Source of the DNA: Thermoplasmata archaeon
GTDB taxonomy: Archaea; Thermoplasmatota; Thermoplasmata; Lutacidiplasmatales; UBA184
Direction: 5' to 3'
NCBI GenBank assembly: GCA_049584655.1
Contig: JBAUYF010000007.1
Location: forward strand, 27,288 to 91,287
DNA length: 64,000 nucleotides
Positions 4,715-48,929 of this stretch are shown piece by piece. Made by a program: the position numbers and the translations under genes. Under the pieces are notes generated by a model. That model ran no database searches and had not been told where the DNA came from. It saw only the letters and a program-made list of their open reading frames with translations. How positions within the stretch are numbered: position 1 is the stretch's first letter; each line of letters begins with the position of its first letter.

Positions 4715-4794
4715 TGGTCTCCTCCGTCGTCGGCGAGATTATTTCACCGGGAGAATTCCCGCATCGGTCGGCTGACTCGGGATGGGGATGCGGT

Positions 4795-5571: not shown

Positions 5572-5816
5572 CTCGGTGGCAATCGGGAATCGCCGGGAGA
5601 TTATCTACCCAACGGACCGGACGAAATGATACCCATCCGGAGGCACGCCCGGTAACTTAGGTAGGGCGACCCACGTATCCTAGAAAGTCAGGGCTCGGAG
5701 TTCGACGACCGTTTACGACCGAGCCGGAGTTCGTACGTAACCCGCTTCATAAGCCAAGTGGATGCGACCGCCACCGGGGGGCTCAACCGGCCCCGCAGTG
5801 GAGCGAACGTCGCGGC

Positions 5817-6740: not shown

Positions 6741-6839
6741 AAGCGAGTCGAGGGCGTCGAGAGCTGAGTGCTCCCGTTTGGCGAACCCACCGCCGATAAC
6801 GGGATCGAGCTCCTGCCCAGGCGGATGTAATGAGGGTCG

Positions 6840-7550: not shown

Positions 7551-7660
7551 GGCTTCTCTGGAATTCGCGAAGGGTCGTTGCGGGATTCTTGGTCGATTGA
7601 CCCGTGCTGAAGGAGCAGGACGCTCGGAGCGGGACCTGTCTGCCGACCGGGTGGTTCGGT

Positions 7661-9510: not shown

Positions 9511-9699
9511 AGTAGCCCAGTCGCGGGGGTTGGGTCCCGGGAGTTGAAAAGCGTAGCTGCCTATGCGCAGCGCAACCCCGCACGAAGCGCTACTCGCGGG
9601 GCACAAATTCCTCCCGGATCACGATTCCTGGACCACCAGTCGAAATAGCCCATCGCGTCAACCGCCGCGAGCTACGGTTGGCGGTCTTGTCCGAAAAGT

Positions 9700-9750
9700 A
9701 GAGGATCCCGGGCCCGGTGGATCCGCGGGCGGTTACCACCGCCCAGCTCG
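9700..9750 (-). terminator. 7-bp GC hairpin (GGGCGGT-tacc-ACCGCCC) followed on the minus strand by CTTTTCGG; terminator-like element 3' of gene 9775..10185
   Basis: A perfect inverted repeat at 9729-9746 with a T-run downstream on the transcribed strand. Confidence 0.3.
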
Positions 9751-9774
9751 GCCGCGCGGGAGTTTCCCGGTAAT

Positions 9775-10185
9775 CTAGCGGAAGTGGCGCGAAACCGCGA
9801 TCAGGTAAATCGCCAGGATCAACGCCACGATGAATCCGAATGTGATGAACGCTCCGGCCAATCCGTAGGACACCATCTCAAAGATCAGGAAGATGAGCGT
9901 AAGGACCAGGGCCCATAGACGCAGATGCCAGAGACCCACCGCGAGGCCGAGAATAATCAGGCCCACGATGAGCACGATCAGCCCGCCAATGACCCCCGAG
10001 AACCCGAAATGCCCGAACAGGTTCCCTCCTCCGTACTTGACCCCAATCGAGGAACCCACGGCCAGGAAGAGGCCCAGCAGGAACACGACGAACCCATAGA
10101 TCCCGATCAACACGGCGAGGATTGCCACGCCCAAAGGTCGGGAGGGCCGGGTCTCGTAGACCGCCGTGGTGGGTTCTGCCGTCAT
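9775..10185 (-). CDS. Small 4-TM membrane protein; paralog of 31263..31724
   Basis: 136 aa. The C-terminal half GLWHLRLWALVLTLIFLIFEMVSYGL...IAVSRHFR aligns with ALWRQETWALWTLIVLVFLSEAYLF...LAVRRYFY of 31263..31724. Confidence 0.6.
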   Translation of the reverse strand: MTAEPTTAVYETRPSRPLGVAILAVLIGIYGFVVFLLGLFLAVGSSIGVKYGGGNLFGHFGFSGVIGGLIVLIVGLIILGLAVGLWHLRLWALVLTLIFLIFEMVSYGLAGAFITFGFIVALILAIYLIAVSRHFR

Positions 10186-10350
10186 TGAGTCTTAACCTCT
10201 CGAATCGTTGGGAACCCGAGGGGGCATATGAACCCTCGTTTTGGTGTATATTTCGAAAATCTTGCCGCCGAGCGGGTAATCCGGCCTTCTCTTAGGCGAT
10301 TATGTCAGAGGTTCGGCTTCCAAACCGTCTGTTCGGAGGGATTGTATAGG

Positions 10351-11670
10351 TTATACGTCATGGGCGCGCGACGGAGAGTCAGATCTGACTTTCTGGGCCT
10401 CCGCCGGGGTCGTGATACCTCCGGATGCGGCCGCGATCGCAGCGGAGGTAACATACGAAAGGACGAAAATGGTCGCCATCACCGTAACGATCCCGAGAAG
10501 CTCTACCCCCATCTGCTGAACGGCTGAAATCCCACCCCCGAAGAAGAGGCCATTTGGTAGGTTCGGGAACCCCGACCCTTGGGCGAAAGCATGCTGCGCG
10601 AACAGGGGAATCATGAGAATGCCGAACAGTCCACCGACCAAGTGACCCGGAATCAGGCCGACGGGGTCTGAAAACCATCGGACTCGTGAGACCAGGACCT
10701 CCGCGTAAACAAAGATCGGGCCGCACACCAATCCCAGTATCAGGGCGCTCGCGGGCGATACGAAGCCCGCAAGTGGGGTGATGACGATGAGCCCCATAAG
10801 AGTTCCATTGACGGCCCAGGGGAGGTCCGCTGAGCCGCCCCGGCGGAAGAACTGGACCGCCAATACAGATACCATCCCGGCGGCCGCTGCGATGAAGGTC
10901 GTCAGAACGACTACGATCGCTTCCGAATTGAACTGTAGGACGCTCCCCGGATTGAAGCCAAACCATCCAACCCAGAGAAGAAGGATCGATAGGGCGAGCC
11001 ACCCCGGACGGATAGACAATGGCGTTTGCGGGGAGGTAGTATAGCCTCGAGCTCTCTCTTCTCGCCAGACTTGGGCGAGGATGCCCAGGCCAGCGGCGCC
11101 GGCGGCCCCATGAACGACGAGGCCACCCGCAAAATCAACCATACCGATTTTGGCGAGCCATCCCGTCGGATTCCAGATCCAGGCCGCGGGGATCGTCCAA
11201 ATGATCCCAAAGTAGACCACCGAGTAGATCGCGAACGAGGTCAGCTTGACCTTACGCAACACGACGACGCCTACGAGCGCCAGAGTTACGGATGCGAATG
11301 CCGTTTCGAAGAGGAAGTAGGTCCCCATCGCCAGCCCGGTGCCGAAGTAGGCCGGCTGCATCGACCACCAAGGCGTATCGAAAGCGTTCGAGTAGTTCGG
11401 AGAGAATCCTCCCAGGAGGAGCCCGGGACTGTACACAGGGTTTCCGATGAGCCCCGACAGGGTGGGGGCGAACCCGAGGTTGAACCCCACGATCGCCATG
11501 ACGACGAGGGCGAGCCCGCTCATCAGCAGAGTTTTGAGCAGACTTCGGTCCAAGGATTCCCCTAGCTCACCGACCTCGAGGAAGCCGACCGCAAGGGTCA
11601 TGCAGAAGACCAGGAGCGCCGCGATGAGAACCCAGAGATTGTTGTCTAGGTAGGTCGGGTCGAATAACAT
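10351..11670 (-). CDS. amt: Ammonium transporter (Amt/MEP family)
   Basis: About 440 aa with 11 TM segments and Amt motifs (DFAGG..VH..AG..GL..A). The start is MLFDPTYLDNNLW (ATG, cat at 11668-11670). Confidence 0.85.
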   Translation of the reverse strand: MLFDPTYLDNNLWVLIAALLVFCMTLAVGFLEVGELGESLDRSLLKTLLMSGLALVVMAIVGFNLGFAPTLSGLIGNPVYSPGLLLGGFSPNYSNAFDTPWWSMQPAYFGTGLAMGTYFLFETAFASVTLALVGVVVLRKVKLTSFAIYSVVYFGIIWTIPAAWIWNPTGWLAKIGMVDFAGGLVVHGAAGAAGLGILAQVWREERARGYTTSPQTPLSIRPGWLALSILLLWVGWFGFNPGSVLQFNSEAIVVVLTTFIAAAAGMVSVLAVQFFRRGGSADLPWAVNGTLMGLIVITPLAGFVSPASALILGLVCGPIFVYAEVLVSRVRWFSDPVGLIPGHLVGGLFGILMIPLFAQHAFAQGSGFPNLPNGLFFGGGISAVQQMGVELLGIVTVMATIFVLSYVTSAAIAAASGGITTPAEAQKVRSDSPSRAHDV

Positions 11671-11835
11671 CGTTGGATTCCTTGTTCTCGTCGGCTCGAA
11701 GACCGATCCGGGTCCAGACGCCCCGTGAAACACCGAATCGTCCCCTTTTTGAGCCCTCGCTTCGAGGCGAGGGGCCGCACTGCGGCTCTAAGGTTCCGGA
11801 CTGCGGAGCTCGCCGGGGAAAAATATCGGGCCGGC

Positions 11836-12429
11836 TCAGTCGGCCGATGCGTGGATCTGGGAACCCCAAGAGATGAGGGCGATTTCCGCGCCGATTCGCG
11901 GTGCGTCTACTTGCCGTATGCGTTGGAGGAGGTCTTTGCGCGCGGCGGGTGTGAGGACGGTGTCGAGCGTCCGATAGACCTCGTCCTCTCGTCCGTGGTC
12001 CTCCTCGATGCGATCGGCTTCCTTCCGAACCAGGTCGGCCATCTTGAGGGCGTCCGGGCCGGCGGGCGGTTTTCCTTCCTTCATCAACTGTCGGATCTGA
12101 CGCTCGAACTCCTCGGGCTTCCGCTGCTCCTTAGAGCAGCGTTCGAGAAACGCTTCCAGCTCCACTCGGCCGAGCTGGGCCAGCGCATCCTGCACCATGC
12201 GGTCGTTTACGAGGTGGGTTTCGATCAAGTAGCGATGATGTACGTCGAGCAAGCGCTCGATCCGCTTGAGGTCCATGCGCTTCGAGCGTTGAAGCACCTC
12301 GGCCGATTCTCGCAGACGGGCGGCCATCACATAGAGCAAGGTGTGCTGCCGATACATTTCGAGGATCAGGTCATCCTTTGAAAACCCCTCCGGCCCGCGG
12401 TGGGCTTGGGCGGAAGATGAGGCAGGCAC
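11836..12429 (-). CDS. Hemerythrin-like (HHE cation-binding) domain protein
   Basis: Spaced His/Glu motifs (MYRQH, VHHRYLIETHL, EEDHGREDEVY) resemble hemerythrin metal ligands. The plus-strand ORF 11725..12381 is antisense to it and was rejected. Confidence 0.45.
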   Translation of the reverse strand: MPASSSAQAHRGPEGFSKDDLILEMYRQHTLLYVMAARLRESAEVLQRSKRMDLKRIERLLDVHHRYLIETHLVNDRMVQDALAQLGRVELEAFLERCSKEQRKPEEFERQIRQLMKEGKPPAGPDALKMADLVRKEADRIEEDHGREDEVYRTLDTVLTPAARKDLLQRIRQVDAPRIGAEIALISWGSQIHASAD

Positions 12430-12494
12430 GACCGCAATAGGAAATCTGGAGTATTTGGCAAAGAGCTTCGTCGGCGAGAGGCCGGGGTCTCGAC

Positions 12495-13421
12495 CTATAG
12501 CGTGAAATGCGACGTCCGCAGCGATTCGATCTGGTCCGAGATGATGGGCCGACCGAGCCGATCGCGAATTCGCCGACGCTGCCGACGCCGCTGCGCGCGT
12601 ACTGCGGCCGTCCAGGCGGCGACGTCAGGCGCGTCCCGTTCGGGTCGAATCCATTGGATCACCTGATCCAGGTCGTGGAGCTTCCCCAAGTCCCGCTGCA
12701 GTCGGACGAGCTGCTCCTGCGCGTCTACGGGACGAGATGTAGCGAGGGCTTCGCGGAAGAGCCGCATTTCGCGGAGCTCCTTGCGCAAGTCATGCAATCG
12801 AGGGGTCGATACGCGGGCGACGGCTCGGTCGAGCGATCGGGAGACCTCGTCCACGCGTCGGAGGAACTCGGCCTCTGTTTGCAGCATCCAGGACCGCGGG
12901 TCCGAGGCTTCGTGTGCTTCGCGGACCAGACCCCGCAACGCGGCGAACGTCTGATCGTCCGTCAGCGCTTGCGCGAACTTGGCCAGCTTGCGTCGACCGG
13001 CGCGAGCCTCCTTCCTAAGTCGCCCGCGCGCGTTCTGAATGCCCTCGGGGCCGATCGATCGCGAATTTCGAGGGGCTGACGGCAGAACCGAAAGACCGAC
13101 ATCCCGATCACGCACTTGCCCGCACAGTCGAGCAAACGTGTTCACCCGCGCCTGGACCTCCTTCGCGAGCTTTCGCGATTCCGGCGAAATTGAGGCACGC
13201 CAGGGGCGGAACAAGACTGACAGGCGACGCAGGTCCCGGTGCAACACGTGGAGCGGCTCCTCGCCAATGGTGGGACGGATGGCCAATGCCGCCACGCGGG
13301 ACTCGATCGACCCGACCAACGATTCGTACCGTTGGAAGGCGCGTTCTTGATCGTCCGCAGGAATCATGGGAGTTCGCCGACCCCTTTCCCTTTCATTTAA
13401 CTTGCTCTCGAGACTTCTCAA
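12495..13421 (-). CDS. CHAD-domain protein
   Basis: Repeated LHxLRxxxRRLRxxLxxF helical motifs (LHVLHRDLRRLSVLF, LHDLRKELREMRLFREAL, LQRDLGKLHDL) typical of CHAD. The true start is probably the internal MIPADDQ. Confidence 0.6.
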   Translation of the reverse strand: MRSLESKLNERERGRRTPMIPADDQERAFQRYESLVGSIESRVAALAIRPTIGEEPLHVLHRDLRRLSVLFRPWRASISPESRKLAKEVQARVNTFARLCGQVRDRDVGLSVLPSAPRNSRSIGPEGIQNARGRLRKEARAGRRKLAKFAQALTDDQTFAALRGLVREAHEASDPRSWMLQTEAEFLRRVDEVSRSLDRAVARVSTPRLHDLRKELREMRLFREALATSRPVDAQEQLVRLQRDLGKLHDLDQVIQWIRPERDAPDVAAWTAAVRAQRRRQRRRIRDRLGRPIISDQIESLRTSHFTL

Positions 13422-13744
13422 GGCGCAGAGCTGGTCAAATCGTGGTATAACCCCAGCAAGAGAGTTGCGGTAAACTTACCGGACCTCGACGATCGAATGG
13501 CGGATGAACCGAGACGCCGCGCCGTCGACCGATTCGACCAAATTCCTAGTAAAGGTCGCGCCAACTGACGGAAAATTAATCGTGTAGCTCACAGCGCTAC
13601 ATTTGAGGATTGATACTTGTCATGTTGTGCCGTGGCTCGGGGTTAATTGAGCCAATCCGGATTCCACTTTCCCAGTCAGCGTCTTCGCTAAATACCCCTT
13701 CGGAGCTGAACAATCGAGGCAAACCATGGACACGGAGGGAGACA

Positions 13745-13972
13745 ATGCTGCAGATGCAGATAGCCCTGCAGAACGTAGCCATCCGGCGAGCCCATGCGGA
13801 CGCTCGCTTCCGCGGTCTTCAGGAGTACCATAACCTGGAGACCCCGCGCGAGGAGTCCTTGTGGCTCGTCGCGCAGGCACGAACCAACCGAACGACGGTG
13901 CCCGCACGGGAATCCGGCGAGTCCCGGTCACTCCGGACTCGGCTTGCGGAGTTCCTCCGCATCGGGGTCTGA
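13745..13972 (+). CDS. Small basic hypothetical protein (75 aa) in a long AT-rich intergenic region
   Basis: ATG is preceded by GGAGGGAG (SD-like) at a 5-nt spacing. Sequence: MLQMQIALQNVAIRRAHADARFRGLQEY... It is a sub-ORF of track ORF 13610..13972. Confidence 0.3.
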   Translation: MLQMQIALQNVAIRRAHADARFRGLQEYHNLETPREESLWLVAQARTNRTTVPARESGESRSLRTRLAEFLRIGV

Positions 13973-14043
13973 CACCGAACCTGCCCCTAGGGCACCGTCG
14001 AACCCTTTCCCCCGATTACACCGGGGGAACTACTGAAACCGGC

Positions 14044-14520
14044 TTAGGAGCGTCCTTTCGGAGTCCTCTTTCTCTTCAGACGGGCCTTGGCGGCTCGCTC
14101 CTTACGCTTCTCAGCGGCCGTGGGCCATCGGAAGAGCTCGATCCAATTTCCGTCGGGATCTTTGACGTCCGCCACCCATCCCTGGCTCACTTTGAGGTCG
14201 ACCTCAGTAGGACGCGCCCCGTGACCAAGAAGACGGTGATATTCCGCCTCCAATCGGGCGGCCGAAACACTTCCGAGGAGGAATCCAATGTGATCGAGTC
14301 CCTCCCCTGCAGCGTACGGGGCGGCGAATTTCGACTTGCTCGGGTACCAGTTGAGTTCCAGCCGTTGGTGCGACTTGGGATCCTCTAACAGTACCCAGAT
14401 TCCAGCGCCCCACTTTCTCAAGTCGCCTCGAGTCACCTCCCGCAGTCGAAGTCCTCTCGTGTAGAATCGGAGCGATCGCGCCAGGTTCGTCACTCGGATT
14501 CCGGTGTATCGCAGCGGCAT
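14044..14520 (-). CDS. VOC / glyoxalase family protein with a Lys/Arg-rich C-terminal tail
   Basis: FYTRGLRL...LELNWY...DHIGFL...DPDGNWIELF. Paralog of 645..1055. The tail is AEKRKERAAKARLKRKRTPKGRS. Confidence 0.7.
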   Translation of the reverse strand: MPLRYTGIRVTNLARSLRFYTRGLRLREVTRGDLRKWGAGIWVLLEDPKSHQRLELNWYPSKSKFAAPYAAGEGLDHIGFLLGSVSAARLEAEYHRLLGHGARPTEVDLKVSQGWVADVKDPDGNWIELFRWPTAAEKRKERAAKARLKRKRTPKGRS

Positions 14521-14808
14521 GGAGGCTCGAACGACTCGCTCAATTCAAGGTTTCCGCCTTAGGCCTGGCGCCCAAATTGGATTCACGAGAGATCCGTGGA
14601 GTTCGCCGGACGCCGCCTGGGAGATGTGTAGGGCATACAGTTCAATTCGCAAACTCCGGGGTGAGTGGGGAATCGAGCTTATGGGAGGTTTTGGCCCATC
14701 TCAGACGACTAGAACCGTTTCTTGTCAACCAGGTCTCCGGCAGCCTCGACATCGTCGCCATTGGAGAGCTAGGTCTATCTTGGTGAAAGTTTTTGATTTT
14801 GTGGGACG

Positions 14809-15144
14809 ATGGAGTTCCAAGCGACGCGCGCCCCGATCCCCGCGGAGGGGATTATCTGCCCCGGGTGTGGGGAGTCGATTCATCGGAAAACCGTCGCCTT
14901 TCAGTTGTCTGGCTTGCCTTTGATCCTCCGCTCCACAATGGGCGAGGCACGATACCACGGCATTGAGTGCCTTCGGGTCGACGCCCGCCGACGTTACCGT
15001 GCCCAGTTCGAGTTCAAGTCGAGCAATCGATTCGGCTGGCAGGCGCATGCGGCTACGAACGATGAGCGGCTCCTCACTCTGAAGCTGCTGTCCGAGTGGG
15101 CCGAGGCGCGCCGGACCGCTGAAACGAAGTTGCCCGCGCAATAA
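14809..15144 (+). CDS. Hypothetical protein with a CPGCG motif
   Basis: 111-aa ORF. The opposite-strand ORF 14725..15234 looks less protein-like. No family recognised. Confidence 0.25.
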   Translation: MEFQATRAPIPAEGIICPGCGESIHRKTVAFQLSGLPLILRSTMGEARYHGIECLRVDARRRYRAQFEFKSSNRFGWQAHAATNDERLLTLKLLSEWAEARRTAETKLPAQ

Positions 15145-15267
15145 CGCCCTCCTCGGATTGTGAACGACCGCCCGCTCCATCGGAGTACGGTCCGCGAGAC
15201 ATCCGCCTAGACTCAAGTAACACTGCGGTCCCACCCCGAGGAGGCGGGGAGTTCACGTTCCAGCGCT

Positions 15268-16098
15268 ATGCCGTTTGTCGATGTCCATGGAGCACGTCTG
15301 TACTACGAGGTCCGGGGCGACGTAGGCGACCCGATCGTACTGGTCCATGGTTCCTGGGTCGACCACACGACCTGGAACCTAGTCGCCCCCCGGCTCTCGG
15401 AGTCATTTCAGTTATTGCTCTACGATCGACGGGGGCATAGTCAGAGCGGGCCTACCAGCGTGCGGGGCACGATCGTCGATGATGCGCTTGATCTTGCGGC
15501 TTTGCTCGAAAGTACCGGATTGTATCCCGCGCATGTGCTTGGTAGCTCCATGGGCGGTTCGGTCGTGCTGCGACTCGCGGAACGTCGGCCCGAATTATTC
15601 CGAAGTCTACTCGTCCACGAACCTCCCGTGTATGACCTCATCCGGAACGATCCGGGTTGGGCAGCCCAAATAGCCGCCCTTCGCGTGGATTTCGAACGAA
15701 TCGCCGACCAAATTCGCCGTGGTCAGATCGAAGAGGGGGCGCGGGATTTCTGGGAGACGTTCGGGGGCCCAGTCGGCAGCTGGGAGCGCCTCAGGCCGGA
15801 GCTCAAGTCGACTTTCACCGCGAACGCTCCGAGCTGGCTCGAAGAATTCGAGGATCCGGGTGCGACCAGCGCCGATCCGGTCGCGCTCAGCGAATTTCTC
15901 ATGCCCGCGTTACTAACGACGGGAGCGAACTCGGTCGCTTGGCAGCAGGAGATTTCGAACCGCTTGGCCGCGCTGTTTCCGAACGTGACCCGTCAAACAC
16001 TACCGAATACCGGTCACTTGCCGCACCTGACCAACCCCGACCTCTTTCTCGGGGTGGTTCAGGCGTTCTGTCTCGAGAGGACGGTTCCCGTCTCGTAA
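15268..16098 (+). CDS. Alpha/beta-fold hydrolase
   Basis: HGSWVDH...GHSQS...GSSMGGSV nucleophile elbow (GxSxG) and C-terminal GHLPH. SD-like GGAGG lies upstream. Confidence 0.8.
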   Translation: MPFVDVHGARLYYEVRGDVGDPIVLVHGSWVDHTTWNLVAPRLSESFQLLLYDRRGHSQSGPTSVRGTIVDDALDLAALLESTGLYPAHVLGSSMGGSVVLRLAERRPELFRSLLVHEPPVYDLIRNDPGWAAQIAALRVDFERIADQIRRGQIEEGARDFWETFGGPVGSWERLRPELKSTFTANAPSWLEEFEDPGATSADPVALSEFLMPALLTTGANSVAWQQEISNRLAALFPNVTRQTLPNTGHLPHLTNPDLFLGVVQAFCLERTVPVS

Positions 16099-16131
16099 CA
16101 ACAACAGAACACGCGCGTCGATCGAGGGGGG

Positions 16132-16968
16132 CTAATTCCTGGATTCTGGCTTCGACATTCGAAACTCATCGAGCAGAGGCATGACTCCCTTGCCCAACCA
16201 CTGGCCTCCGTCGACGGCGAGTACTTGGCCGGTAATGTAACTCGCTTTGGGACTCACGAGAAAGCGGACCGCCTCGGCTACTTCATTGGGAGTTCCGAAA
16301 CGGCCCAAGGGGATTCCCGCTTCGACCGATCGAACCGTCGACTCCGAGGTCCAAAGTTGCTGGTCCGTTCCCGCCGTTCGAATCGGACCCGGCGCCACCG
16401 CATTGACCCGAATTCCGTATCGGGCCCACTCGACGGCTAATGTGCGCGTGAGCGCGAGAACTCCCGCCTTCGCGGCGGCCGAGTGAGCCGTCCCGGGTCC
16501 GGCCATCCAAGCATACGAAGCGACGATATTCACGATCGAGGCGCTAGGCGATGTTTTCAAGAGCGGAAATGCGGCCCGGGAGCACAGGAAGGTTCCGTCC
16601 AGCACGATCCCTACGACGGCCCGCCAGCCATTGGGCGTGATCGATTCTGCTGGGGCCACAAAATTTCCGGCGGCGTTGTTGATCAGTAGATCCAGACGGC
16701 CGTACTCCTGTTGGGTAGAGCGGACCATCGACTCCACTTGCTCGGCAATTCGGACGTCGGTCGGGACCTCGAGTACGCGCGCCCCCGCAGAGCGTAGCTG
16801 TCGCGCGCCGACATCAAGATGCTTCGCGGATCGGCTGGCAATGACGAGATCGTAGCCGTCCTGGATCAGCGAAGCGCCGATCGCCAACCCGAGTCCGGTA
16901 CCACCCCCGGTGATGACGGCAACGGGTCGATCTCGAAGTACGTCGGACTGAGGGGCCGGCGCTGGCAC
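16132..16968 (-). CDS. SDR family oxidoreductase
   Basis: VAVITGGGTGLGLAI Rossmann motif, NNAAG, and catalytic YAWMAGPGTAHSAAAKAG. Confidence 0.85.
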   Translation of the reverse strand: MPAPAPQSDVLRDRPVAVITGGGTGLGLAIGASLIQDGYDLVIASRSAKHLDVGARQLRSAGARVLEVPTDVRIAEQVESMVRSTQQEYGRLDLLINNAAGNFVAPAESITPNGWRAVVGIVLDGTFLCSRAAFPLLKTSPSASIVNIVASYAWMAGPGTAHSAAAKAGVLALTRTLAVEWARYGIRVNAVAPGPIRTAGTDQQLWTSESTVRSVEAGIPLGRFGTPNEVAEAVRFLVSPKASYITGQVLAVDGGQWLGKGVMPLLDEFRMSKPESRN

Positions 16969-17046
16969 TTCGGTCCGAGACCCGCGACGCCTAAAAACGC
17001 TCCTGCAACGTGCGCTCTAATCCCCCGAGCCAATCACCTAGTCCCG

Positions 17047-17505
17047 ATGTCGTCCGAATCAGCCATCCCCAATCCCGATGCGCTCCGCCTGCGAGAGCGG
17101 CTAGACCTTGCCCTCGAGCGCATCTCGCACCTGCCGGCGTTCGACGGAGTCTACCTCGGTCCATGGTGGGAATTGCCCAGCCTATCTCATCAACTGGGGA
17201 TGGTCGGATGGAAGCGAGCGGTACTTCGACGTGTTGCCGGAGGAGGGGCGGAGCATTGGGGCCATTTGTTCCTGCTCTACTCAGCCGTTGGCCAAACCGC
17301 GGGGGTGGAACCGGAGTCCGATCCCCGAGTGCGATCGCCTCGATACGGCGCCGTACGGAAGGTCGGAGAAATCTCGAAGGTAGCGACGTTCCTGGTCCGA
17401 GCGAGTCACCCGGATGGTTCTCCCTTGCTCGATCTGTTTGCGGAACAGTCGCTGGAGCTTCTGCAGGGCGAAGGGAATTCCTCAACGGTCAGCGAGGTCG
17501 AATGA
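17047..17505 (+). CDS. Hypothetical protein
   Basis: Internal ATG of track ORF 16819..17505 (MSSESAIPNPDALRL...). It lies downstream of the convergent SDR. Composition is normal. Confidence 0.4.
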   Translation: MSSESAIPNPDALRLRERLDLALERISHLPAFDGVYLGPWWELPSLSHQLGMVGWKRAVLRRVAGGGAEHWGHLFLLYSAVGQTAGVEPESDPRVRSPRYGAVRKVGEISKVATFLVRASHPDGSPLLDLFAEQSLELLQGEGNSSTVSEVE

Positions 17506-17512
17506 GGAGGAC

Positions 17513-17875
17513 CTAGCGTGTCCCCTTCCCACTTTGCTCCGGGTTGACCGGGCCGGCAAACAACGCGCGAAGGGCCTCCACGTCCTCCGAGCGCAGTCCG
17601 CTCCCCAACACGCCGTCCCACCTACGAATCGGCTCCCCGTTTCGGAAAGCGACCATCGTCGGAACCACATCGATCGAAAAAAGCTCCCAGAGCGGCGAGT
17701 CCGTATCGGTCAAATCGCCGATAGCCGATTGGAAATCCTGTGAGTGTTCGAGAGCCGCGAAAGGCCTCAAAAACGCTCGACAGAACGGACACCAATCCGC
17801 TGAGAAGCAAACTCCCCAACTGCCCTCCCGTCGAAGGCGCTGGCCGTCAAAGTCCGCCGCGCTCAGTCGTTCCAC
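17513..17875 (-). CDS. Thioredoxin-like protein (WCPFC active site)
   Basis: 120 aa. CxxC appears in a thioredoxin context (SADWCPFCRAF...VPTMVAF). Confidence 0.7.
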   Translation of the reverse strand: MERLSAADFDGQRLRREGSWGVCFSADWCPFCRAFLRPFAALEHSQDFQSAIGDLTDTDSPLWELFSIDVVPTMVAFRNGEPIRRWDGVLGSGLRSEDVEALRALFAGPVNPEQSGKGTR

Positions 17876-18005
17876 AGCGAGTTATCGCGAACGTCTCCAT
17901 AAGCTCGACCTGGACGCGGGACGACGACGCTCGCAGCCCTGGCCGATGTGGAAGCCACAGGGGAGCGGAGCGGGGGCTCGAGAATCAGCAGGTACTTGAG
18001 CCTCT

Positions 18006-18935
18006 TTGAATTGCATCCCACCGAGGGAATCCGAGATGACTTGGCCCGTTCCGATCGAGCGTAAGACCGAGCGAATGTTTCCGCGTCCGTTATCGGGGCG
18101 GATCGAACGTCATCCCTTTCCCAGCCGAGTCTTGCAAGACAACCCGCTTGGGGATCCGGCAGATCGCGAACTTCCGGTCTATATCCCTCCGTCCGGAAAG
18201 ACCGAGGGCCGTCCGCTTCTGGTCCTTCTCTCCGGTTACACAGGGGCGGGATGGATGCATTTCGAACGGTCCCGATGGTTAAACGAGACGCGTGTCGTCC
18301 TTTTAGACCGCTTGATCCGCGCCGGCCGGTTGGCGGAATCGGTCTTGGTCGCCCCGGACTGTTTGACGACACTCGGAGGCAGTCAGTATCTGAATTCGAC
18401 GGCGACCGGACAATACGAGGATTACCTCGTCCAAGAGATCCTTCCGTGGGTCCGCGAAAAATATCACACCGGACCAATGGGCGTCCTCGGAACTTCCAGC
18501 GGAGGATACGGCGCCTTGGTGATGGGCCTTCGCCACCCCGACCTATTTCCTGCCGTGGCGTCGAATGCCGGAGATTGCTACTTCGAGTACGGTTACTTGC
18601 CCGAGTTTCCCATTGACGCGCGCGAGATCCGACGGTCGGGGGGACCGGATAAGTTCCTCGCCCGAATCTTTGAACAACCCATCAGTGACTTCGGACCAAG
18701 AAACCCACTCGCAATCACGCTCGAGCAGGTGGCCTACGCTTCCTGCTACTCGCCGGTCGAGGCTGAGCCGGGGCGTTTCGACCTTCCGTTTGATCTCGAC
18801 TCGGGGGAGCTCGACCTTCCGGTTTGGGCGCGATGGCTGGCCTGGGATCCGGCCCGGATGATCGAGACGGATCGGTACCGAGAGGCGCTGCGCAAGTTAC
18901 GCTACGTGTACGTAGACGGCGGTACGCGAGACTAG
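18006..18935 (+). CDS. Esterase D / S-formylglutathione hydrolase-like serine esterase (PF00756-like), terminated by an in-frame TAG
   Basis: LLSGYTGAG, VLVAPDC and nucleophile elbow GTSSGGYGA match esterase D. The ORF stops at TAG 18933-18935, inside the conserved D-x-FL motif. Confidence 0.7.
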   Translation: MNCIPPRESEMTWPVPIERKTERMFPRPLSGRIERHPFPSRVLQDNPLGDPADRELPVYIPPSGKTEGRPLLVLLSGYTGAGWMHFERSRWLNETRVVLLDRLIRAGRLAESVLVAPDCLTTLGGSQYLNSTATGQYEDYLVQEILPWVREKYHTGPMGVLGTSSGGYGALVMGLRHPDLFPAVASNAGDCYFEYGYLPEFPIDAREIRRSGGPDKFLARIFEQPISDFGPRNPLAITLEQVAYASCYSPVEAEPGRFDLPFDLDSGELDLPVWARWLAWDPARMIETDRYREALRKLRYVYVDGGTRD

Positions 18936-19094
18936 TATTTTCTCGATCTCGGGGCCCGGGTATTCGCAGCGCGGGCGAAACGGCAGGGAGTCACCGTCGA
19001 CCATCAAGAGTTCGACGGCGTGCACGGCGATGGCGGTCGGCGTTACGAAGCGATGTACACGGGCGTCCTCCGCGCTTTGGGCTTCCCGTCTTGA
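18936..19094 (+). other. In-frame continuation of the esterase past the TAG, encoding the catalytic-His region
   Basis: Same frame. It reads YFLDLGARVFAARAKRQGVTVDHQEFDGVHGDGG... and corresponds to esterase D ...DDQFL...GYDHSY. Translation stops at TGA 19092-19094. Confidence 0.5.
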
Positions 19095-19214
19095 AACTCC
19101 GATCTCTCAAACCGACGCAAGACCTAAGAGCCCGAGAATCGACCGTAGGGGCGTAATGCCGTCCGATCACGGAGGTTCGACGACTTTGCCCGGCGCCGAG
19201 GGGAGGGAACGGCG

Positions 19215-19367
19215 ATGATTCAGGACGGCAAGATCGTCTGTGATGAGTGTAAGTCGGTAATCACGCGCGTCACCGTCCTGCCCCCGGAAGGATGGCCCAA
19301 ACTCCACTCTTTGTGCTCGAAATGCTATGCCGCGGCACGCGACCGCGCCGAGCCACGGCTCACGTAA
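19215..19367 (+). CDS. Small zinc-ribbon protein (50 aa, CxxC-x26-CxxC)
   Basis: MIQDGKIVCDECKSVITRVTVLPPEGWPKLHSLCSKCYAAARDRAEPRLT. GGAGG lies about 9 nt upstream. It is under the 60-aa cutoff, so it is absent from the track. Confidence 0.4.
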   Translation: MIQDGKIVCDECKSVITRVTVLPPEGWPKLHSLCSKCYAAARDRAEPRLT

Positions 19368-19382
19368 GCCGTCGCCCTGCGA

Positions 19383-19934
19383 TTATGAGGTCGCGTCGAC
19401 GACCGCCGCCCCGAGCGATGCGGCTTCGTCTTCGATCCACGCGAGCACGACGAAATACCAGCTCATGGCGAGCAGTAGCGGGAGTTCCGGATGGGTTCGA
19501 CCGAGCGGGTCAATCGACACGAGGGCCCCCACGAGCCGACCGGATTGACGAACCGGCTCGATCTCGAGTAACTTCGTCTCTTTCGAGTCGCAAAGATTCC
19601 ACGCCGGCACCAAGAGGCCCGCGCGTCGAAAGGAGTAGGATGCGCCCCCCCGGATTTCTAAGAGATGAGACCGCGAATGGACGGTCATCCGGGCGAGGTC
19701 GACGTTCTGCCCCGGTCGACGCGCGGTGAGATGTGGGTTGAGAAAGCCGGAGCGCTTGAGCGTCCACTCGTCCCCGACGGTCGCCACATGCGCGAGCGAC
19801 CCAATGTGCTTTTCCCAACTCATGACCGCGACGGTCGCGTCGCCGGCCTTTAACGCGTACTCGTGCCGGTCTTCCGTCGATCGGACCCAACGAACGGTGT
19901 TGAGGTCGGCGGCAGCGAAGGCAGTGAGTTCCAT
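19383..19934 (-). CDS. Hypothetical protein (183 aa)
   Basis: Normal composition. No family recognised with confidence. Confidence 0.5.
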   Translation of the reverse strand: MELTAFAAADLNTVRWVRSTEDRHEYALKAGDATVAVMSWEKHIGSLAHVATVGDEWTLKRSGFLNPHLTARRPGQNVDLARMTVHSRSHLLEIRGGASYSFRRAGLLVPAWNLCDSKETKLLEIEPVRQSGRLVGALVSIDPLGRTHPELPLLLAMSWYFVVLAWIEDEAASLGAAVVDATS

Positions 19935-20021
19935 CGGGGCGGCCCACCGTCGCGCCCGTTCTTAAGGGAACCGGCCGGGTTGCAGCCGATTCGGATTTTC
20001 CGAGCTCGCATGAGCGCGGAA

Positions 20022-20738
20022 TCACGATTTTGACGGCGAACTCCGACGAAGACCATCCAGGTCGTGCTTCAACAGATCGAGCTCATGGACCGCCACATCG
20101 CTTTCACCTTCCGAAGCGAGCGGAGTGAGGGGAATGGCCGCCCGGGCCGGAGGGGGAGGAGGCGGCGGAGGAGGCAAGAACGAAGTCGCCGGGCCGGCCA
20201 CGGATGCCGCCTTCACGGAGACCCCCCGTACGCCCCCCGGGTCCAACCTTCGAGACTTCGAAGAAATCACCGCCGGAGTACGGGGAGGGGGTGACGGAAG
20301 TGTCCGTAGGGATCCCGCGGAGGTCGATTTTCTTGGCGGGGCCGTTGGAGTTTCCTCCGGTTCATCCTCCTCGGCGAAATAGGAAATGACTCCGCCAACA
20401 CCGGCCACGATTCCGAGCACCAAGAACAAGATCCACAGATGGAAACCGCCGGCACCCACCGTCGGCTCGAGCGACCAGGTGAGAAGGGCTCCGACCAGCA
20501 GGATCCAGGATGGGAAGAGCAGCGGGAAGCAGCCCCCGATGCGGCGGAAGAAATCATTCGGGGCGCGCCGTTCTGCTGGATCCGGTCGACCATGTACATC
20601 GGGAAGGGGCCGACCGGTAACGCGGGGGGCGGGCGGGTCCGGGGAGGACGCAGGCGTCAGGGCGTCTTCGTCCCAATCGGGGGCATACATGCTGTGGGGA
20701 GCCATCGGCGCAATCTGGAATAATTCGAGGAGGGCCAA
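20022..20738 (-). CDS. Membrane protein with two TM helices and a Pro-rich C-terminal region that includes a PPPPPPPPP run
   Basis: Hydrophobic helices at about aa 70-120. The plus strand (ggagg)n at 20140-20180 is the reverse complement of the poly-Pro codons. Confidence 0.5.
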   Translation of the reverse strand: MALLELFQIAPMAPHSMYAPDWDEDALTPASSPDPPAPRVTGRPLPDVHGRPDPAERRAPNDFFRRIGGCFPLLFPSWILLVGALLTWSLEPTVGAGGFHLWILFLVLGIVAGVGGVISYFAEEDEPEETPTAPPRKSTSAGSLRTLPSPPPRTPAVISSKSRRLDPGGVRGVSVKAASVAGPATSFLPPPPPPPPPARAAIPLTPLASEGESDVAVHELDLLKHDLDGLRRSSPSKS

Positions 20739-20742
20739 TTCA

Positions 20743-21111
20743 ATGTATCGCCGCTGTGGCGAGGCAGGGTGGCCCTGGTCGACTTCGACTCGTAAGGGGA
20801 CGGTCTACCGCCGAACGGGGCTGGGCTTATGCGGAACTACTTCCTATCCCGAAGCCGGAGGATTTCTGCCGCACTACACGTTGGCTCCCGCCTCGCCCAC
20901 TCGAGATCCAGAGAGGGAATTCGACCTTTGTTCTCGTTGCATGGTCGAACCCGAGATTATTCGGGTGGTCGCCGTAAAGAAATCCGGGCTTGCCTTGGGT
21001 TCCGATGCCAATCCAGCCGTTATCAAGGTCCCGCACACGTCCTACGATTTCGCGCCGCGACCAATTCCGTGCATCTCGTGTGCCCGGATACTATCCGCGG
21101 ACGACGATTGA
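20743..21111 (+). CDS. Hypothetical Cys-containing small protein (possible zinc ribbon)
   Basis: Only the non-overlapping 3' part of track ORF 20386..21111 is kept. It contains CSRC and CISC pairs. This is a weak call. Confidence 0.25.
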   Translation: MYRRCGEAGWPWSTSTRKGTVYRRTGLGLCGTTSYPEAGGFLPHYTLAPASPTRDPEREFDLCSRCMVEPEIIRVVAVKKSGLALGSDANPAVIKVPHTSYDFAPRPIPCISCARILSADDD

Positions 21112-21122
21112 ACTCCGGAACG

Positions 21123-21488
21123 CTACCGCTTCGCGACGAGAAACAAGATCCCGCTGATCAAGAGGCAGAGGGAGGCCAGGATCGCAAGAACGCCGGACGC
21201 AAAACCTAACGCGAGCCATCCGACGACCGCCATTACCACGAGGATGATCCCGGCCGCCAAACTCTCGTCGCCCCATCGTGACCTTCCGAGAATCGCAAAA
21301 AATCCGGCGATAAGCCCGACGACAATGAAAACGATCGACTGATCCAGGGACGAGAACGACGCCCCCGCTCGATGAGTCGCGAGGAAAAAGGCGCCCTTGA
21401 AGAAGTCAAAGATGCCGTCTAAGACCAGTAAGGCAGCCCCCAGCAAGCCAAACAGCAATCCAAGCGGGCGGTCCGAGCGGTACGTCAC
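21123..21488 (-). CDS. Small 4-TM membrane protein
   Basis: 121 aa and hydrophobic. The C-terminal LVAKR end resembles the 9775 and 31263 family. Confidence 0.5.
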   Translation of the reverse strand: MTYRSDRPLGLLFGLLGAALLVLDGIFDFFKGAFFLATHRAGASFSSLDQSIVFIVVGLIAGFFAILGRSRWGDESLAAGIILVVMAVVGWLALGFASGVLAILASLCLLISGILFLVAKR

Positions 21489-21765
21489 AGTCCCTCCTCA
21501 GCTACCGCGTGCGCCTCCGGCTCGGGAGGATATAAACCGTTCACGCTCGGCCCCGACGGCATGTCGCATTCTAGCTCTCCGAATGACATTCGATCCGAGC
21601 GAGTTAGTGTCTAGCCCCGGAGCAAGGAAGCCTCCCCTTGCCCAAATCGGGAATCTCGACGAACAGTCGCGCCCGAATACGCAACTGTCGTGGCCCATCC
21701 GTCGTAGGAAAGGTCGGAAATCCGAGGGCAAGGTTTTTCATCTCGGCCCGGACTCCAAACGCCGC

Positions 21766-21872
21766 GGCCGGGATGGGGTAGCTTGGCCTATCCTGGGGGA
21801 CTGTGGATCCCTCGACCCGGGTTCAAAGAGAGGCGGGAACCACCCCACCTCTGGGAACTCTCGGTCCCGGCC
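21766..21872 (+). tRNA. Candidate intron-containing tRNA (probably tRNA-His, anticodon GTG), with a 31-nt intron in the T-loop (59/60)
   Basis: G(-1)+GCCGGGA pairs with TCCCGGC+C73. T8, A14 and G18G19 are present. D-stem is GGGT/ATCC. Anticodon arm is GGGGA-CTGTGGA-TCCCT. T-arm is CCGGG-TTCAAA[31 nt]T-CTCGG. One extra nucleotide sits at position 26. Confidence 0.4.
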
Positions 21873-22775
21873 CTACCGCCGCCGCCCCGGCTTCTTCGCG
21901 CCCCTGCGGGACGATTTCTTACGGTTCGACGCCTTCGATGGACCGCGCTCAAGTTCGGCGAGTTTTTCGGGGAGCGCCGACAACGAGTAGTCCGCCCACG
22001 CGGCTCCCCAGCTTCGAAGATCTTCGGGGGTTAGTCCCCAACCGTGAAGCGACGATGCGCGCCCGATGGGAGTGACCCCTTCCACCGAAGCGGCAGCTTC
22101 CATATCGAATCGGGAGTCCCCGATCAAAAAGATCCGTGCGCCCGGATACCGCCGTCGGTACTCCTGGAGATGTTCCCGCTTCGTGCCTTGCGCCGAGCCC
22201 AAGACATCCTCGAACCAGAATCGCAATCCCTCGCGTTCGAGCAGCAAATCCGCCATCTCGGTTTCCGCTCCCGTCGAGATCACGAGGGTCCAGTGTTCTT
22301 GTGAGAGCCGTTTCAATAGCTTGGGCACCTCGGGGAACGGGCCCGCATGGGCATACGCTTCCGTTACCTTGCGGCCGTGGAACGTCCGGGCTGTGGCGGC
22401 TCGGAGCGTTGCCGGGGCATTTCCGTAGAGCTGGGACAGTTGAGCTTCGAATGGCATGCCGGTCGTGGCGAGGTAGTGAATGCGACCCTCTTCGATCGGA
22501 GTTCCAAAGGCGGTATGCATGACATCCGCGGCCACATGGCTGATGAGGGAGATATCGTCGAGAATCGTGCCATCCATGTCGAAGACGACGACTCCGCGTT
22601 CAACGTGAGTAGGAACAACTTCGCGCGGGAGGGTCGGGAGCCGGGAGATTTCGGAGAACTGGGAGGCGGCAGAGGAGACGATCGGGAGTTCGAGGCCTTC
22701 CAAGGGAGCGTCCGGAGGAGCGGGTTCCGGAGGTGGTGACGAGGAGTGAGAGGGCTTGCGGGCGCGCGGCTTCAT
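21873..22775 (-). CDS. HAD-superfamily hydrolase (phosphoglycolate phosphatase-like) with a basic C-terminal tail
   Basis: VVVFDMDGTILDD (DxD motif I), LVISTG, and IGDSRFDMEAA (motif IV). The ORF N-terminus is probably over-extended. The tail is KASNRKKSSRRGAKKPGRRR. Confidence 0.7.
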   Translation of the reverse strand: MKPRARKPSHSSSPPPEPAPPDAPLEGLELPIVSSAASQFSEISRLPTLPREVVPTHVERGVVVFDMDGTILDDISLISHVAADVMHTAFGTPIEEGRIHYLATTGMPFEAQLSQLYGNAPATLRAATARTFHGRKVTEAYAHAGPFPEVPKLLKRLSQEHWTLVISTGAETEMADLLLEREGLRFWFEDVLGSAQGTKREHLQEYRRRYPGARIFLIGDSRFDMEAAASVEGVTPIGRASSLHGWGLTPEDLRSWGAAWADYSLSALPEKLAELERGPSKASNRKKSSRRGAKKPGRRR

Positions 22776-22892
22776 CGGCCGGGGGAGCCCAGCCCCCTCT
22801 TAAGAGCCGCCTCGCCCTTTACCTCGACCTATCAGGACTCACGAGTTGCCTTGGGTAACTCCGTCCGGCCCTTAGCACGAGCGAGGAATACG

Positions 22893-24248
22893 ATGCATCC
22901 GAGCCGAGCGATCCGAGGTCGAACTTCGCAGCTGTTGAGCAAGCGCCGGATAATTCTCGGAATATCTGGGTCCATCGCTGCAGTCGAAGTCGTTCGAATC
23001 ATTCGAGAGCTAATCCGACACGGTGCGGATGTTCAAGCTGTCATGAGCGCCGAGGCGACTCGTATCATTACCCCGGAGGCGGTCGCGTTCGCAACGGGTC
23101 ATCCTCCCGTGACCCAGCTCTCCGGCGCGGTGGAACATGTTTCGTTCCTTGGCCCGGGGGAAGATCGGGCCGACCTATTCCTCATCGCTCCCGCCACCGC
23201 CAACACGATCTCCAAGATCGCCCACGGTATCGATGACACTCCCGTGACTTCGTTCGCCTCCGTGGCCCTGGGCGGGGGCGTACCGATCCTGATCGCTCCG
23301 GCGATGCACGCGCACATGGGACGCAACCCGGCGGTTCAGGAAAGTCTCGACCGCCTACGCGGCTGGGGTGTCGGAGTTATTGCCTCCCAAGCCGCGGAAG
23401 GAGAGGAGAAGCTCGCGACGCCCGAAGAGGTTGCGGCGGCCGTACTCCATCGACTCGCACGCGGACCTTGGGTCGGTGGAAGCGTGATCGTTATCGGAGG
23501 TGCCTCACGGGAGTCGATAGATGAGGTCCGATCGATCACGAATGAGAGCAGCGGGACGTTCGCCGTCGCGCTTGCCACCCAAGCGCACTATCGGGGCGCC
23601 GATGTTCAGTTTTGGGCGGGCGCGTTGCAAGTGCCCGTTCCCACCTTCTTGTCTCGACAGTCTTGGCGAGGAGTCACCGACCTGATCGAGTTGGCTCGAT
23701 CGCATGCCTTGGAGCTCTCGGCCGCCCGAGCCGTGATCGTACCGGCGGCATTGTCTGACTTTTCAGTCTCCAGCCTCCCCGGGAAAATATCTTCCCGAGA
23801 ACATCCGACGCTCTCGTTGAAGCTGGATCGTGCGCCGAAGGTACTCCCCGAACTCCGGCGATTAGCTCCCCCGCCGGTACGATTGGTGGGATTCAAGCTT
23901 GAAGCGGACACCGCCCCCGCCGCACTCGAGCGGGAGGGTCGTGCGATGTTGGAGGAGGCGCACCTCGACTGGGTGATTGCCAATGACGCGAAGACGCTCG
24001 GAAATCTCAATGTCAACGCCTACGTGCTCAAGCGATCCGGGGGTGGCCACTGGATTCAAGGGCCCAAGGCAGAAGTTGCCGGGAAGATTTGGGACGACCT
24101 TGGGCGCGAAATCGCCGACATCCCATCAACGACGGCGGTGGCATCCGTGTCCGCTTCGGCGAGAACGGCTGACTCGCAAGGATCGCGTCACGGGTCGCTG
24201 CGACGCCGTGCGGCGCGGGGTGGACGGCGCCGGGCCCGTCGGTCTTAA
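22893..24248 (+). CDS. coaBC: Bifunctional phosphopantothenoylcysteine decarboxylase / phosphopantothenate-cysteine ligase
   Basis: The N-terminal flavoprotein ILGISGSIAAVEVVRIIREL...ITPEA...IAPATANTISKIAHGIDD plus a C-terminal DFP/CoaB domain (IVIGGASRESID...SSG). ATG at 22893. Confidence 0.85.
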   Translation: MHPSRAIRGRTSQLLSKRRIILGISGSIAAVEVVRIIRELIRHGADVQAVMSAEATRIITPEAVAFATGHPPVTQLSGAVEHVSFLGPGEDRADLFLIAPATANTISKIAHGIDDTPVTSFASVALGGGVPILIAPAMHAHMGRNPAVQESLDRLRGWGVGVIASQAAEGEEKLATPEEVAAAVLHRLARGPWVGGSVIVIGGASRESIDEVRSITNESSGTFAVALATQAHYRGADVQFWAGALQVPVPTFLSRQSWRGVTDLIELARSHALELSAARAVIVPAALSDFSVSSLPGKISSREHPTLSLKLDRAPKVLPELRRLAPPPVRLVGFKLEADTAPAALEREGRAMLEEAHLDWVIANDAKTLGNLNVNAYVLKRSGGGHWIQGPKAEVAGKIWDDLGREIADIPSTTAVASVSASARTADSQGSRHGSLRRRAARGGRRRARRS

Positions 24249-24280
24249 TAGCCGCGGCACCTGCGCGGCCGAGGTTTCGC

Positions 24281-25420
24281 ATGGTGAAACTGGCCGAATG
24301 GCGAGGCAAAGAGATTCTGCGCCGGTACGCCATTCCGCTTCCTCGGGGGCAGGTAGCCCGAACCCCCCAGGAAGCTGCGGAAGTCATCCGAGCCGGGCGC
24401 GTACCGCTCCCCGCCGTCATCAAGGCTCAAGTCCTGGCCGGAGGCCGGGGGAAGGGCGGGTTCGTCCGTTTCGGGAACACCGCCGAGGAAGTCAGTCTGG
24501 CGGCGGCCGGAATCCTCGGACTTGAATTCAAGGGCGAGAAAGTCAAAGAGGTTCTGATCGAAGAGAAGCTCTCGATCGGACGAGAGCTCTATGTTTCGCT
24601 AACTCTCGATCGGAGCCTCCGACTGCCGGTCCTTCTGACGAGCGCCCAAGGAGGAGTGGAGATCGAATCCGTCCCGGACGACCAGTTGGTCCGACAGTCG
24701 ATCCACCCGTTCACGGGGTTGGTCACTTACGAGAAGAGACGGGCGGGCCAATCGCTCGGCCTCTCCGGTGGTCCAGCCAAAGCGTTGAATCCCCTCCTCG
24801 ACGCTCTGTGGCAGATCTTCGAGAAGGAAGATGCCGAACTGGTCGAGATCAATCCGCTCGCCATTGTAGGTGATGGCTTGGTCGCCCTCGACGCGAAAGT
24901 AATTATCGAGGACGATGCCGGATTCCGCCACCCCGACTACGCGACAATACTCGATGATCGAACTCCGCTCGAAGAGATCGCGCGCGAGAAAGAGATTGCC
25001 TTTGTCCAATTGGATGGGAACATTGGCGTCATCGCGAATGGCGCGGGATTGACCATGGCCACGTTGGACGTGCTCAAGGAGTTCGGCGGTGACCCCGGCG
25101 TTTTCCTCGACCTCGGAGGGACCGACGACCCGGCGAAGGTCACCGAGGCGTTTCTCCTCATGGCCAAAGCAAAGCCGAAGGTCGTCTTCCTCAACATCTT
25201 CGGCGGGGTCACCCGCTGCGATACGGTCGCGCGGGGCTTAGTCGAGGCGATGAAGCAAGTTGTCCCCGCCGAGCGATTCCCACTCGTCGCTCGAATTCGC
25301 GGTAACAACGAGAACGAGGGCCGCGCAATCCTCAAGGAAGCAGGAATAACCTCCCTCTCCAATCTGAAAGAGTCCGCCCAGGCCGTGGTCGCGCTCGCCC
25401 ACCCGGGAGTTTCGTCATGA
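24281..25420 (+). CDS. sucC: Succinyl-CoA synthetase beta subunit
   Basis: MVKLAEWRGKEILRRYAIP...VIKAQVLAGGRGKGG...NIFGGVTRCD. ATGA overlap with sucD. Confidence 0.9.
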   Translation: MVKLAEWRGKEILRRYAIPLPRGQVARTPQEAAEVIRAGRVPLPAVIKAQVLAGGRGKGGFVRFGNTAEEVSLAAAGILGLEFKGEKVKEVLIEEKLSIGRELYVSLTLDRSLRLPVLLTSAQGGVEIESVPDDQLVRQSIHPFTGLVTYEKRRAGQSLGLSGGPAKALNPLLDALWQIFEKEDAELVEINPLAIVGDGLVALDAKVIIEDDAGFRHPDYATILDDRTPLEEIAREKEIAFVQLDGNIGVIANGAGLTMATLDVLKEFGGDPGVFLDLGGTDDPAKVTEAFLLMAKAKPKVVFLNIFGGVTRCDTVARGLVEAMKQVVPAERFPLVARIRGNNENEGRAILKEAGITSLSNLKESAQAVVALAHPGVSS

Positions 25421-26301
25421 GCGTTCTCGTCGACGAATCGACCCGCGTCGTAGTCCAAGGGATCACCGGTCACCAGGGGACGGTCCACACGCGACAGATG
25501 CGGGCCTTCGGCACCAAGGTCGTCGCCGGCGTCACTCCCGGAAAGGGGGGTTCCACGGTCGAAGACGTTCCGGTGTTCGATACGGTCCGCGAGGCGGTCG
25601 ACCGAACCGAGGCGAACGCGGCTTGCATTTTCGTCCCCGCACCTTACACAAAGGACGCACTCATCGAGTCGGTAGACGCCGGCCTCCGACTGGCCGTCAT
25701 CGTCACGGAGCACATTCCGTTCCACGATATGCTTGTGATGTACCACTACGCCCGCGCCGAAGGCGCTCGGATCATTGGCCCAAACTGCCCCGGCATCGCC
25801 GCGCCTGGGAAAGCCAAGGTCGGGATTATTCCAAATGTCGTGTTCCAACCCGGACGGATCGGGGTGATTTCGCGCAGCGGGACCTTGACCTATGAGATCG
25901 TGAACGGGATCAAGGAACACGGACTCGGCCAGAGCACCTGTATCGGACTGGGAGGGGATCCCGTCGTCGGAACTTCTTTTGTGGACGCGCTCCCGTTCTT
26001 CGAGAAGGACCCGGAGACCGACCTCCTCGTGCTCGTCGGCGAGATCGGCGGAACAGCCGAGGAGGACGCCGCCGAGTACATCCGAGATCACTTCACCAAG
26101 CCGGTCGTCGCCTACGTCGCCGGCCGCTCGGCTCCCCCAGGAAAGCGAATGGGCCATGCGGGTGCGATCATCGCACGAGGCAAGGGAACCGCGGAGAGCA
26201 AGCTCAAAGCTTTGCAGGCAGCCGGCGCCGTCGTGGCACGATTTCCCTACGAGATCCCCGACCTCGTAGCGCAGCGTTGGAAGGTATCGAATCGCCGATG
26301 A
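25417..26301 (+). CDS. sucD: Succinyl-CoA synthetase alpha subunit
   Basis: [11 protein letters not shown]...SRSGTLTYE...GEIGG...MGHAGAI (the phosphohistidine region). Confidence 0.9.
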
Positions 26302-26525
26302 CCCCTGGGGATGGACGCCCGGCATCGGTCGAGGAAGCAGGCGAGATGTGCGCCGTTCCCGGCTGCGGGGGCGAATCGGTCCGCCACCTTTCGTTGGCGG
26401 AAGCTCGAAAAGTGTTCACCTCGCTCCCCGAAAGGGGCCGACGAGCGCCGTTATGTCGAGACCATTACAAAGAATGGAAAAAGCGGACCAAGGAAGCCCG
26501 CAAGCTCGACCGACTGACGTGGTAA
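26277..26525 (+). CDS. Small Cys/His zinc-finger-like basic protein
   Basis: CAVPGCGG...LCRDHYKEWKKRTKEARK. It overlaps the sucD 3' end by 25 nt. It may start at the internal MCAVPGC. Confidence 0.3.
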   Translation: MEGIESPMTPGDGRPASVEEAGEMCAVPGCGGESVRHLSLAEARKVFTSLPERGRRAPLCRDHYKEWKKRTKEARKLDRLTW

Positions 26526-26595
26526 GGCGTCTCGAACGAGTTCTCCGATTCGCCAGGAACGGGTTTTGGGGACCCGAACCTCTCAGGTCCCCTAC

Positions 26596-33944: not shown

Positions 33945-33950
33945 GGCCCT

Positions 33951-48927: not shown

Positions 48928-48929
48928 CG

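Follow-up and report, generated by a model that had tools for sequence, protein, structure and literature searches.

Does an in-frame amber codon inside an otherwise intact archaeal gene mark a mutation, a sequence error or a codon that is still translated? The question is raised by an esterase gene of an uncultured Thermoplasmata archaeon from soil, of whose genome we analyzed one stretch of 64,000 nucleotides (64 kb, referred to as the window in this text). On the forward strand, the esterase frame opens with an ATG at position 18036 and contains a single TAG at 18933–18935. Behind it, 52 sense codons follow in the same frame until a TGA is reached at 19092–19094. An initial annotation had described this arrangement, and sequence and translation confirm it. 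The reading that we favor, with a probability of about 75%, is that one strain or population of soil Thermoplasmata carries a very recent loss-of-function allele, or incipient pseudogene, for a serine esterase of family PF00756 (CE1 / esterase-D-like).

The residues before the stop read RYVYVDGGTRD, and the frame continues behind it with YFLDLGARVF...EFDGVHGDGGRRYEAMYTGVLRALGFPS. A mechanically called open reading frame that ends with the stop at 18935 extends from 18006 to 18935 and begins with a TTG at 18006, but the start shared by the orthologs is the ATG at 18036 (MTWPVP...). The 5' part of the gene thus comprises codons 1–299 (18036–18932, plus strand), as supported by its translation, its PF00756 match and the ATG common to the orthologs, and the amber triplet is codon 300. 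The cut-off 3' part (codons 301–352, 18936–19091, plus strand) is intact and coding-like, with a coding score of +0.20 per codon. It contains the sequence DGVHGDGG, ends in GFPS, and its 52 codons encode a protein segment that is 100% identical to that of an intact relative (P0001). The TGA at 19092–19094 (plus strand) is the original stop of the gene and is common to the intact relatives. With the amber codon masked, the joined frame encodes 352 aa. The gene measures 1059 nt in the window, in two near-identical assemblies (L001 and L002) and in a nearby outgroup (L003), and all of these end in GFPS followed by the stop codon.

The joined 352 aa product matches the Pfam family PF00756 ('Putative esterase') over residues 43–330, that is, across the stop, with 58.9 bits (E-value 8.7e-16), the gathering cut-off of this family being 22 bits. 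The same assignment was found precomputed on all 120 homologs among the matches listed. A database search returned thousands of full-length homologs of 352–360 aa, and where their source was named, it was always a 'Thermoplasmata archaeon' MAG. The copy in the window is a disrupted member of this family. The initial annotation had called the gene esterase-D-like, which holds at the superfamily and Pfam level, but not at the equivalog level: TIGR02821 (S-formylglutathione hydrolase / esterase D equivalog) reaches 35.7 of the 281.7 bits required, and only residues 126–178 align. The protein is therefore not an S-formylglutathione hydrolase proper. With the known members of PF00756 (esterase D / S-formylglutathione hydrolase, CE1 feruloyl esterases, antigen 85) it shares the fold, the GxSxG motif, the acid after strand β7 and the His after strand β8. 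It differs from them in belonging to a large Thermoplasmata-wide subfamily of about 352–360 aa, and in that the gene is interrupted in the window. The closest solved structure is 8Z91, an esterase from a soil metagenome, on which a model of the intact protein superposes with a TM score of 0.79 at 26% sequence identity; no paper on this PDB entry turned up in a literature search. Superposition on feruloyl esterases and S-formylglutathione hydrolases gives TM scores of about 0.5–0.56.

The canonical triad of α/β-hydrolases consists of a GxSxG elbow after β5, an acid after β7 and a His after β8. The AlphaFold2 model of the intact esterase (mean pLDDT 91, pTM 0.91) places Ser154 (18495–18497, plus strand), which is part of a GTSSG sequence, between strand 148–152 and helix 155–166, as in a nucleophile elbow. 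Asp299 (18930–18932, plus strand), the candidate for the catalytic acid, is modelled just after strand 290–296, and His330 (19023–19025, plus strand) just after strand 322–326. Alignment and model thus put Ser154, Asp299 and His330 at the canonical positions, where they would form a putative catalytic triad. In an alignment of 48 homologs with 62–86% identity, G152, T153, S154, S155, G156, D299, E300 and H330 are invariant. In profile alignments, the D299-E300 pair corresponds to E-E in 8z91 and to D-D in the feruloyl esterase 5vol, and H330 pairs with a His of either structure. The amber codon takes the place of Glu300, which directly follows Asp299, and it parts Ser154 and Asp299 from His330, so that no uninterrupted frame encodes all three residues. 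The initial annotation had placed the stop between the catalytic Asp and the catalytic His, a view that the invariance of Asp299, Glu300 and His330 and their position in the model support.

Termination at the TAG would yield a product of 299 aa that lacks one helix, the last β-strand, the loop with His330 and the C-terminal helix. According to the secondary structure of the AlphaFold2 model, the missing elements are helix 303–316, strand 322–326 and helix 335–347. No usable restart is available behind the stop. The only in-frame start codons are codons 329, 340 and 348, and the first of these, a GTG at codon 329, lies too far downstream for a useful or complementing C-terminal fragment. Since the 299 aa product is without His330, it would have no Ser-Asp-His triad and should be inactive, which is a strong prediction from the sequence and the model.

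How the codon arose can be seen from its relatives. The best database match (P0001, 352 aa, 99% identical) has a Glu at codon 300 (GTRDEYFLD). The DNA behind this entry was taken from two sources, contig JBAUXN010000013.1 of an NCBI MAG and a Logan assembly made independently from run SRR28061326. Positions 8036–29096 of the window are 99.87% identical to the former and 99.81% identical to the latter. At position 18933, the window has a T, where both near-identical assemblies (L001, L002) have a G, and the codon is accordingly TAG in the one case and GAG in the others. The nearest outgroups (L003 and L004) also carry a G at 18933, therefore the T is the derived state. The sense codon of the closest relatives and outgroups is one mutational step away from the stop.

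The initial annotation had pointed to a comparison of orthologs at the TAG codon, and across the 82 orthologous loci that we fetched, codon 300 is GAG in 72 and GAA in 10 cases. None of the 82 loci has an in-frame stop; the window is alone in having a TAG. Eighty of these loci belong to species representatives, most of which were obtained in studies of soil or peat. The GTDB representative of the species of the window itself was absent from the species-representative matches, the best of which was 89% identical. It had also been envisaged that orthologs might end at the same point with unrelated sequence downstream. This proved wrong, since every ortholog runs on into the same conserved C-terminus, which also refutes a family that naturally ends at codon 300. 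In one species representative, a locus from a metagenome bin (L074, positions 3001–4054 of the sequence fetched from CAWISZ010000001.1, MAG MFD09222.bin.1.49), the esterase ortholog has a frameshift near codon 69 that divides it between two frames. This could be a second, independent disruption in the family or an assembly indel. The esterase ortholog is intact in the other 79 species representatives.

A single G to T transversion at 18933 would have converted the invariant Glu300 codon GAG into the amber codon TAG, directly after the catalytic Asp299. That one substitution, with GAG to TAG among the options, had produced a recent pseudogene was the first explanation offered in the initial annotation, and it is now supported by the G at 18933 in two near-identical assemblies and by the GAG or GAA found in 82 of 82 loci. 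As a feature, this is a textbook single-step nonsense mutation, of a kind that is already known and not novel. Like nonsense pseudogenes and segregating loss-of-function alleles in other prokaryotic populations, it consists of a single substitution that puts a premature stop into an otherwise intact gene. The sense codon is retained in the nearest strains and in every ortholog, a residue essential for catalysis is encoded behind the stop, and no further decay is seen. The allele differs from such pseudogenes in nothing of kind; here it is known from assembled sequence. The tetranucleotide CTAG is strongly under-represented in the whole window (52 occurrences versus about 221 expected from base composition), and the G to T change adds one, as part of the palindrome ACTAGT (18931–18936).

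It is possible that the T results from an error in assembly, consensus or base calling, in which case the organism has GAG and an intact gene, and the window shows a mis-polished base or a minor variant in a mixed-strain consensus. We consider this unlikely. The TAG allele was found in no other assembly and is thus a singleton, both near-identical assemblies having GAG. The truncated product is not on record, either in its 299 aa form starting from the ATG, or as a 309 aa form starting from the TTG, as translated or with an initial Met. JGI metagenome contigs contained no match for either allele when searched with a 50-mer and a 26-mer that span codon 300 and have an N at the variable base. 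The 52 codons downstream of the stop are untouched, and the frameshifted L074 locus demonstrates that such disruptions do occur in these MAGs.

The other differences between the window and its two relatives help to judge this. Taken together, 30 sites differ between the window and JBAUXN010000013.1 or the Logan contig. Of these, 25 are coding substitutions, of which 16 are synonymous, 8 missense and one nonsense; the remainder are three substitutions and two 1 bp indels, all intergenic. Apart from these indels, at 26568 and 20770, the window does not differ in length from the relatives. One of them is a homopolymer of five versus four G residues, the other a single extra T. Random errors are expected to be mostly non-synonymous, with indels inside genes. 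The differences found, for the most part synonymous or intergenic, thus resemble genuine strain divergence under purifying selection and not random error. The homopolymer indel is of a type that fits an error; taken together, however, the 29 differences other than the nonsense change appear biological, with 16 of 25 coding substitutions being synonymous and all indels intergenic. The G to T change itself is not of the homopolymer type, and its local context is not of low complexity. As the tract contains real SNPs at about 1.3 per kb, a real SNP should a priori be far likelier per differing site than an error. We therefore infer that the T at 18933 is truly present in cells.

The differences are unevenly distributed. 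When positions 1–29096 and 45929–64000 of the window were compared with JBAUXN010000013.1, no difference was found in 1–8290 and 45929–64000, and 28 were found in 8291–26581. They are densest between 16052 and 18953 (13 differences in 2.9 kb), and seven of these lie in the esterase gene. This mosaic suggests either that the tract has diverged locally or recombined, or that the consensus was drawn from mixed strains; the latter would speak for an error at 18933. We also considered whether the share of the esterase gene (7 of 28 differences) could indicate relaxed selection, but only four of the changes are derived in the window, and two of these are synonymous, so that no usable signal remains. 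The excess agrees with local divergence or recombination of this tract.

The window-derived changes in the esterase gene are two synonymous substitutions, one missense substitution (A194D) and the nonsense substitution. None falls into the 52 codons behind the stop, therefore the event must have been very recent, if it is real. An intact tail agrees with a very recent mutation, and it would agree equally well with a sequence error or with a gene that is still translated.

A gene that is still translated would require that the TAG is decoded, by pyrrolysine, by another form of amber suppression or by readthrough, and that the full-length 352 aa esterase is still made. The Thermoplasmata (phylum Thermoplasmatota) include the Methanomassiliicoccales lineage, which uses pyrrolysine (PMC3941956; bioRxiv 10.1101/2024.09.30.615893), and it is for this lineage that pyrrolysine has been reported within the Thermoplasmatota (bioRxiv 10.1101/2024.09.30.615893). 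Because the phylum contains such methanogens, we took the recoding option seriously. The locus resembles the recoded genes of Methanomassiliicoccales and Methanosarcinales in that a TAG lies in frame within a conserved gene, here one from the Thermoplasmatota, and the frame downstream of it is intact and coding-like. Nevertheless, decoding appears very unlikely. The in-frame TAG is not conserved as it is in recoded genes: it occurs in none of the 82 orthologous loci, including those of the two strains with more than 99.8% identity (99.8–99.9%), which have GAG. It also replaces an invariant Glu beside the catalytic Asp, so that any other residue inserted there would amount to a damaging missense change.

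TAG also serves as a frequent terminator in the window. It ends 15 of the 55 other genes in the window by our own gene calls (27%) and 18 of 61 (30%) by independent database calls, among them the CN-hydrolase gene ending at 30448, the HAD gene at 21873–22775 and a gene for a 166 aa protein at 57142. The initial annotation had cited these three genes as an argument against global reassignment, and TAG is indeed an ordinary terminator here. The median use of TAG as terminator is 5% in archaea with pyrrolysine and 22% in those without it (PMC12626013), hence the values for the window lie above the latter and far from the former, and TAG is not depleted as it would be expected to be in a pyrrolysine user. 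We regard this as supportive only and have downgraded it as an argument, because archaea with pyrrolysine range from 1 to 27% TAG, which makes stop codon usage alone an unreliable predictor (PMC12626013).

Further signs of decoding were sought in the window. Besides the esterase gene, no TAG-terminated gene in the window is followed by a coding-like in-frame extension. Neither a tRNA gene nor a pyl-type family was found among the genes of the 64 kb, and the RNA 3' of the stop (18930–19050) shows no structure beyond that of shuffled sequence (z = -0.13). In archaea, pyrrolysine co-occurs strongly with methane and methylamine metabolism (PMC12626013). The window contains a complex-I operon, along with genes for topoisomerase VI, an archaeal primase and an FtsZ/tubulin-type protein, and no genes for methanogenesis or methylamine metabolism among the families listed for it. 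The organism thus looks respiratory and not methanogenic, and the interrupted gene does not encode a methylamine methyltransferase, which again sets it apart from the known cases. The alternative of readthrough or pyrrolysine decoding, which the initial annotation had named, therefore finds no support: TAG is absent from the orthologs at this codon, common as a terminator, and accompanied by no tRNA or pyl family in the window. If the amber codon were translated nonetheless, by pyrrolysine or another suppressor, in a respiratory, non-methanogenic soil member of the Thermoplasmata whose strain tolerates new TAG codons in ordinary genes, this would place amber suppression in a lineage and a lifestyle from which it is not known, but we hold that to be highly improbable.

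The search for coding-like extensions yielded one other candidate, which involves a different stop codon. A nuoN-like gene (33951–35549, minus strand) ends with TGA, and a geranylgeranyl-reductase-like gene (32844–33944, minus strand) follows 6 nt further on in the same frame. As a split frame (32844–35549, minus strand), this pair was rejected: because the second gene has a GTG start of its own and a GxGxxG motif at its N-terminus, these are two genes.

That the 299 aa protein is a selected short variant with a new non-catalytic or otherwise altered role is scarcely credible, since nothing specific speaks for it beyond a 5' part that remains an open, expressed-looking frame with its own start, while the short form occurs in no ortholog or close strain, the loss of a core β-strand and the catalytic His from a single-domain α/β-hydrolase usually destabilizes the fold, and the discarded tail is still perfectly conserved, which leaves no time for selection on a new form.

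Annotators should mark the locus as a disrupted gene or pseudogene or flag it for a check of the reads, and not list it as a recoding candidate. It matters little beyond this. As a negative example, it illustrates that finding a TAG in frame does not by itself point to pyrrolysine in the Thermoplasmatota. If the loss-of-function allele is real, at least one strain can do without the esterase despite the conservation of its family across Thermoplasmata MAGs from soil and peat, and the allele could possibly serve as a strain marker for the population.

Two further genes of the window may be mentioned here. At 52480–53967 (minus strand) lies an intact frame for a formiminotransferase-cyclodeaminase-like (FTCD) protein of 495 aa. 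The NCBI record of JBAUXN lists only a C-terminal product of 189 aa for this gene, and the Logan gene calls give 493–495 aa. A truncation of the gene in JBAUXN was rejected, as its DNA is 100% identical to that of the window; the discrepancy is one of gene calling or annotation only. On the same strand as the esterase gene and 120 nt 3' of it, a short frame (19215–19367, plus strand) encodes a Cys-rich protein of 50 aa with a zinc-ribbon-like CDEC...CSKC arrangement. Its Pfam match is weak and below threshold, and the gene calls of both near-identical relatives include this frame.
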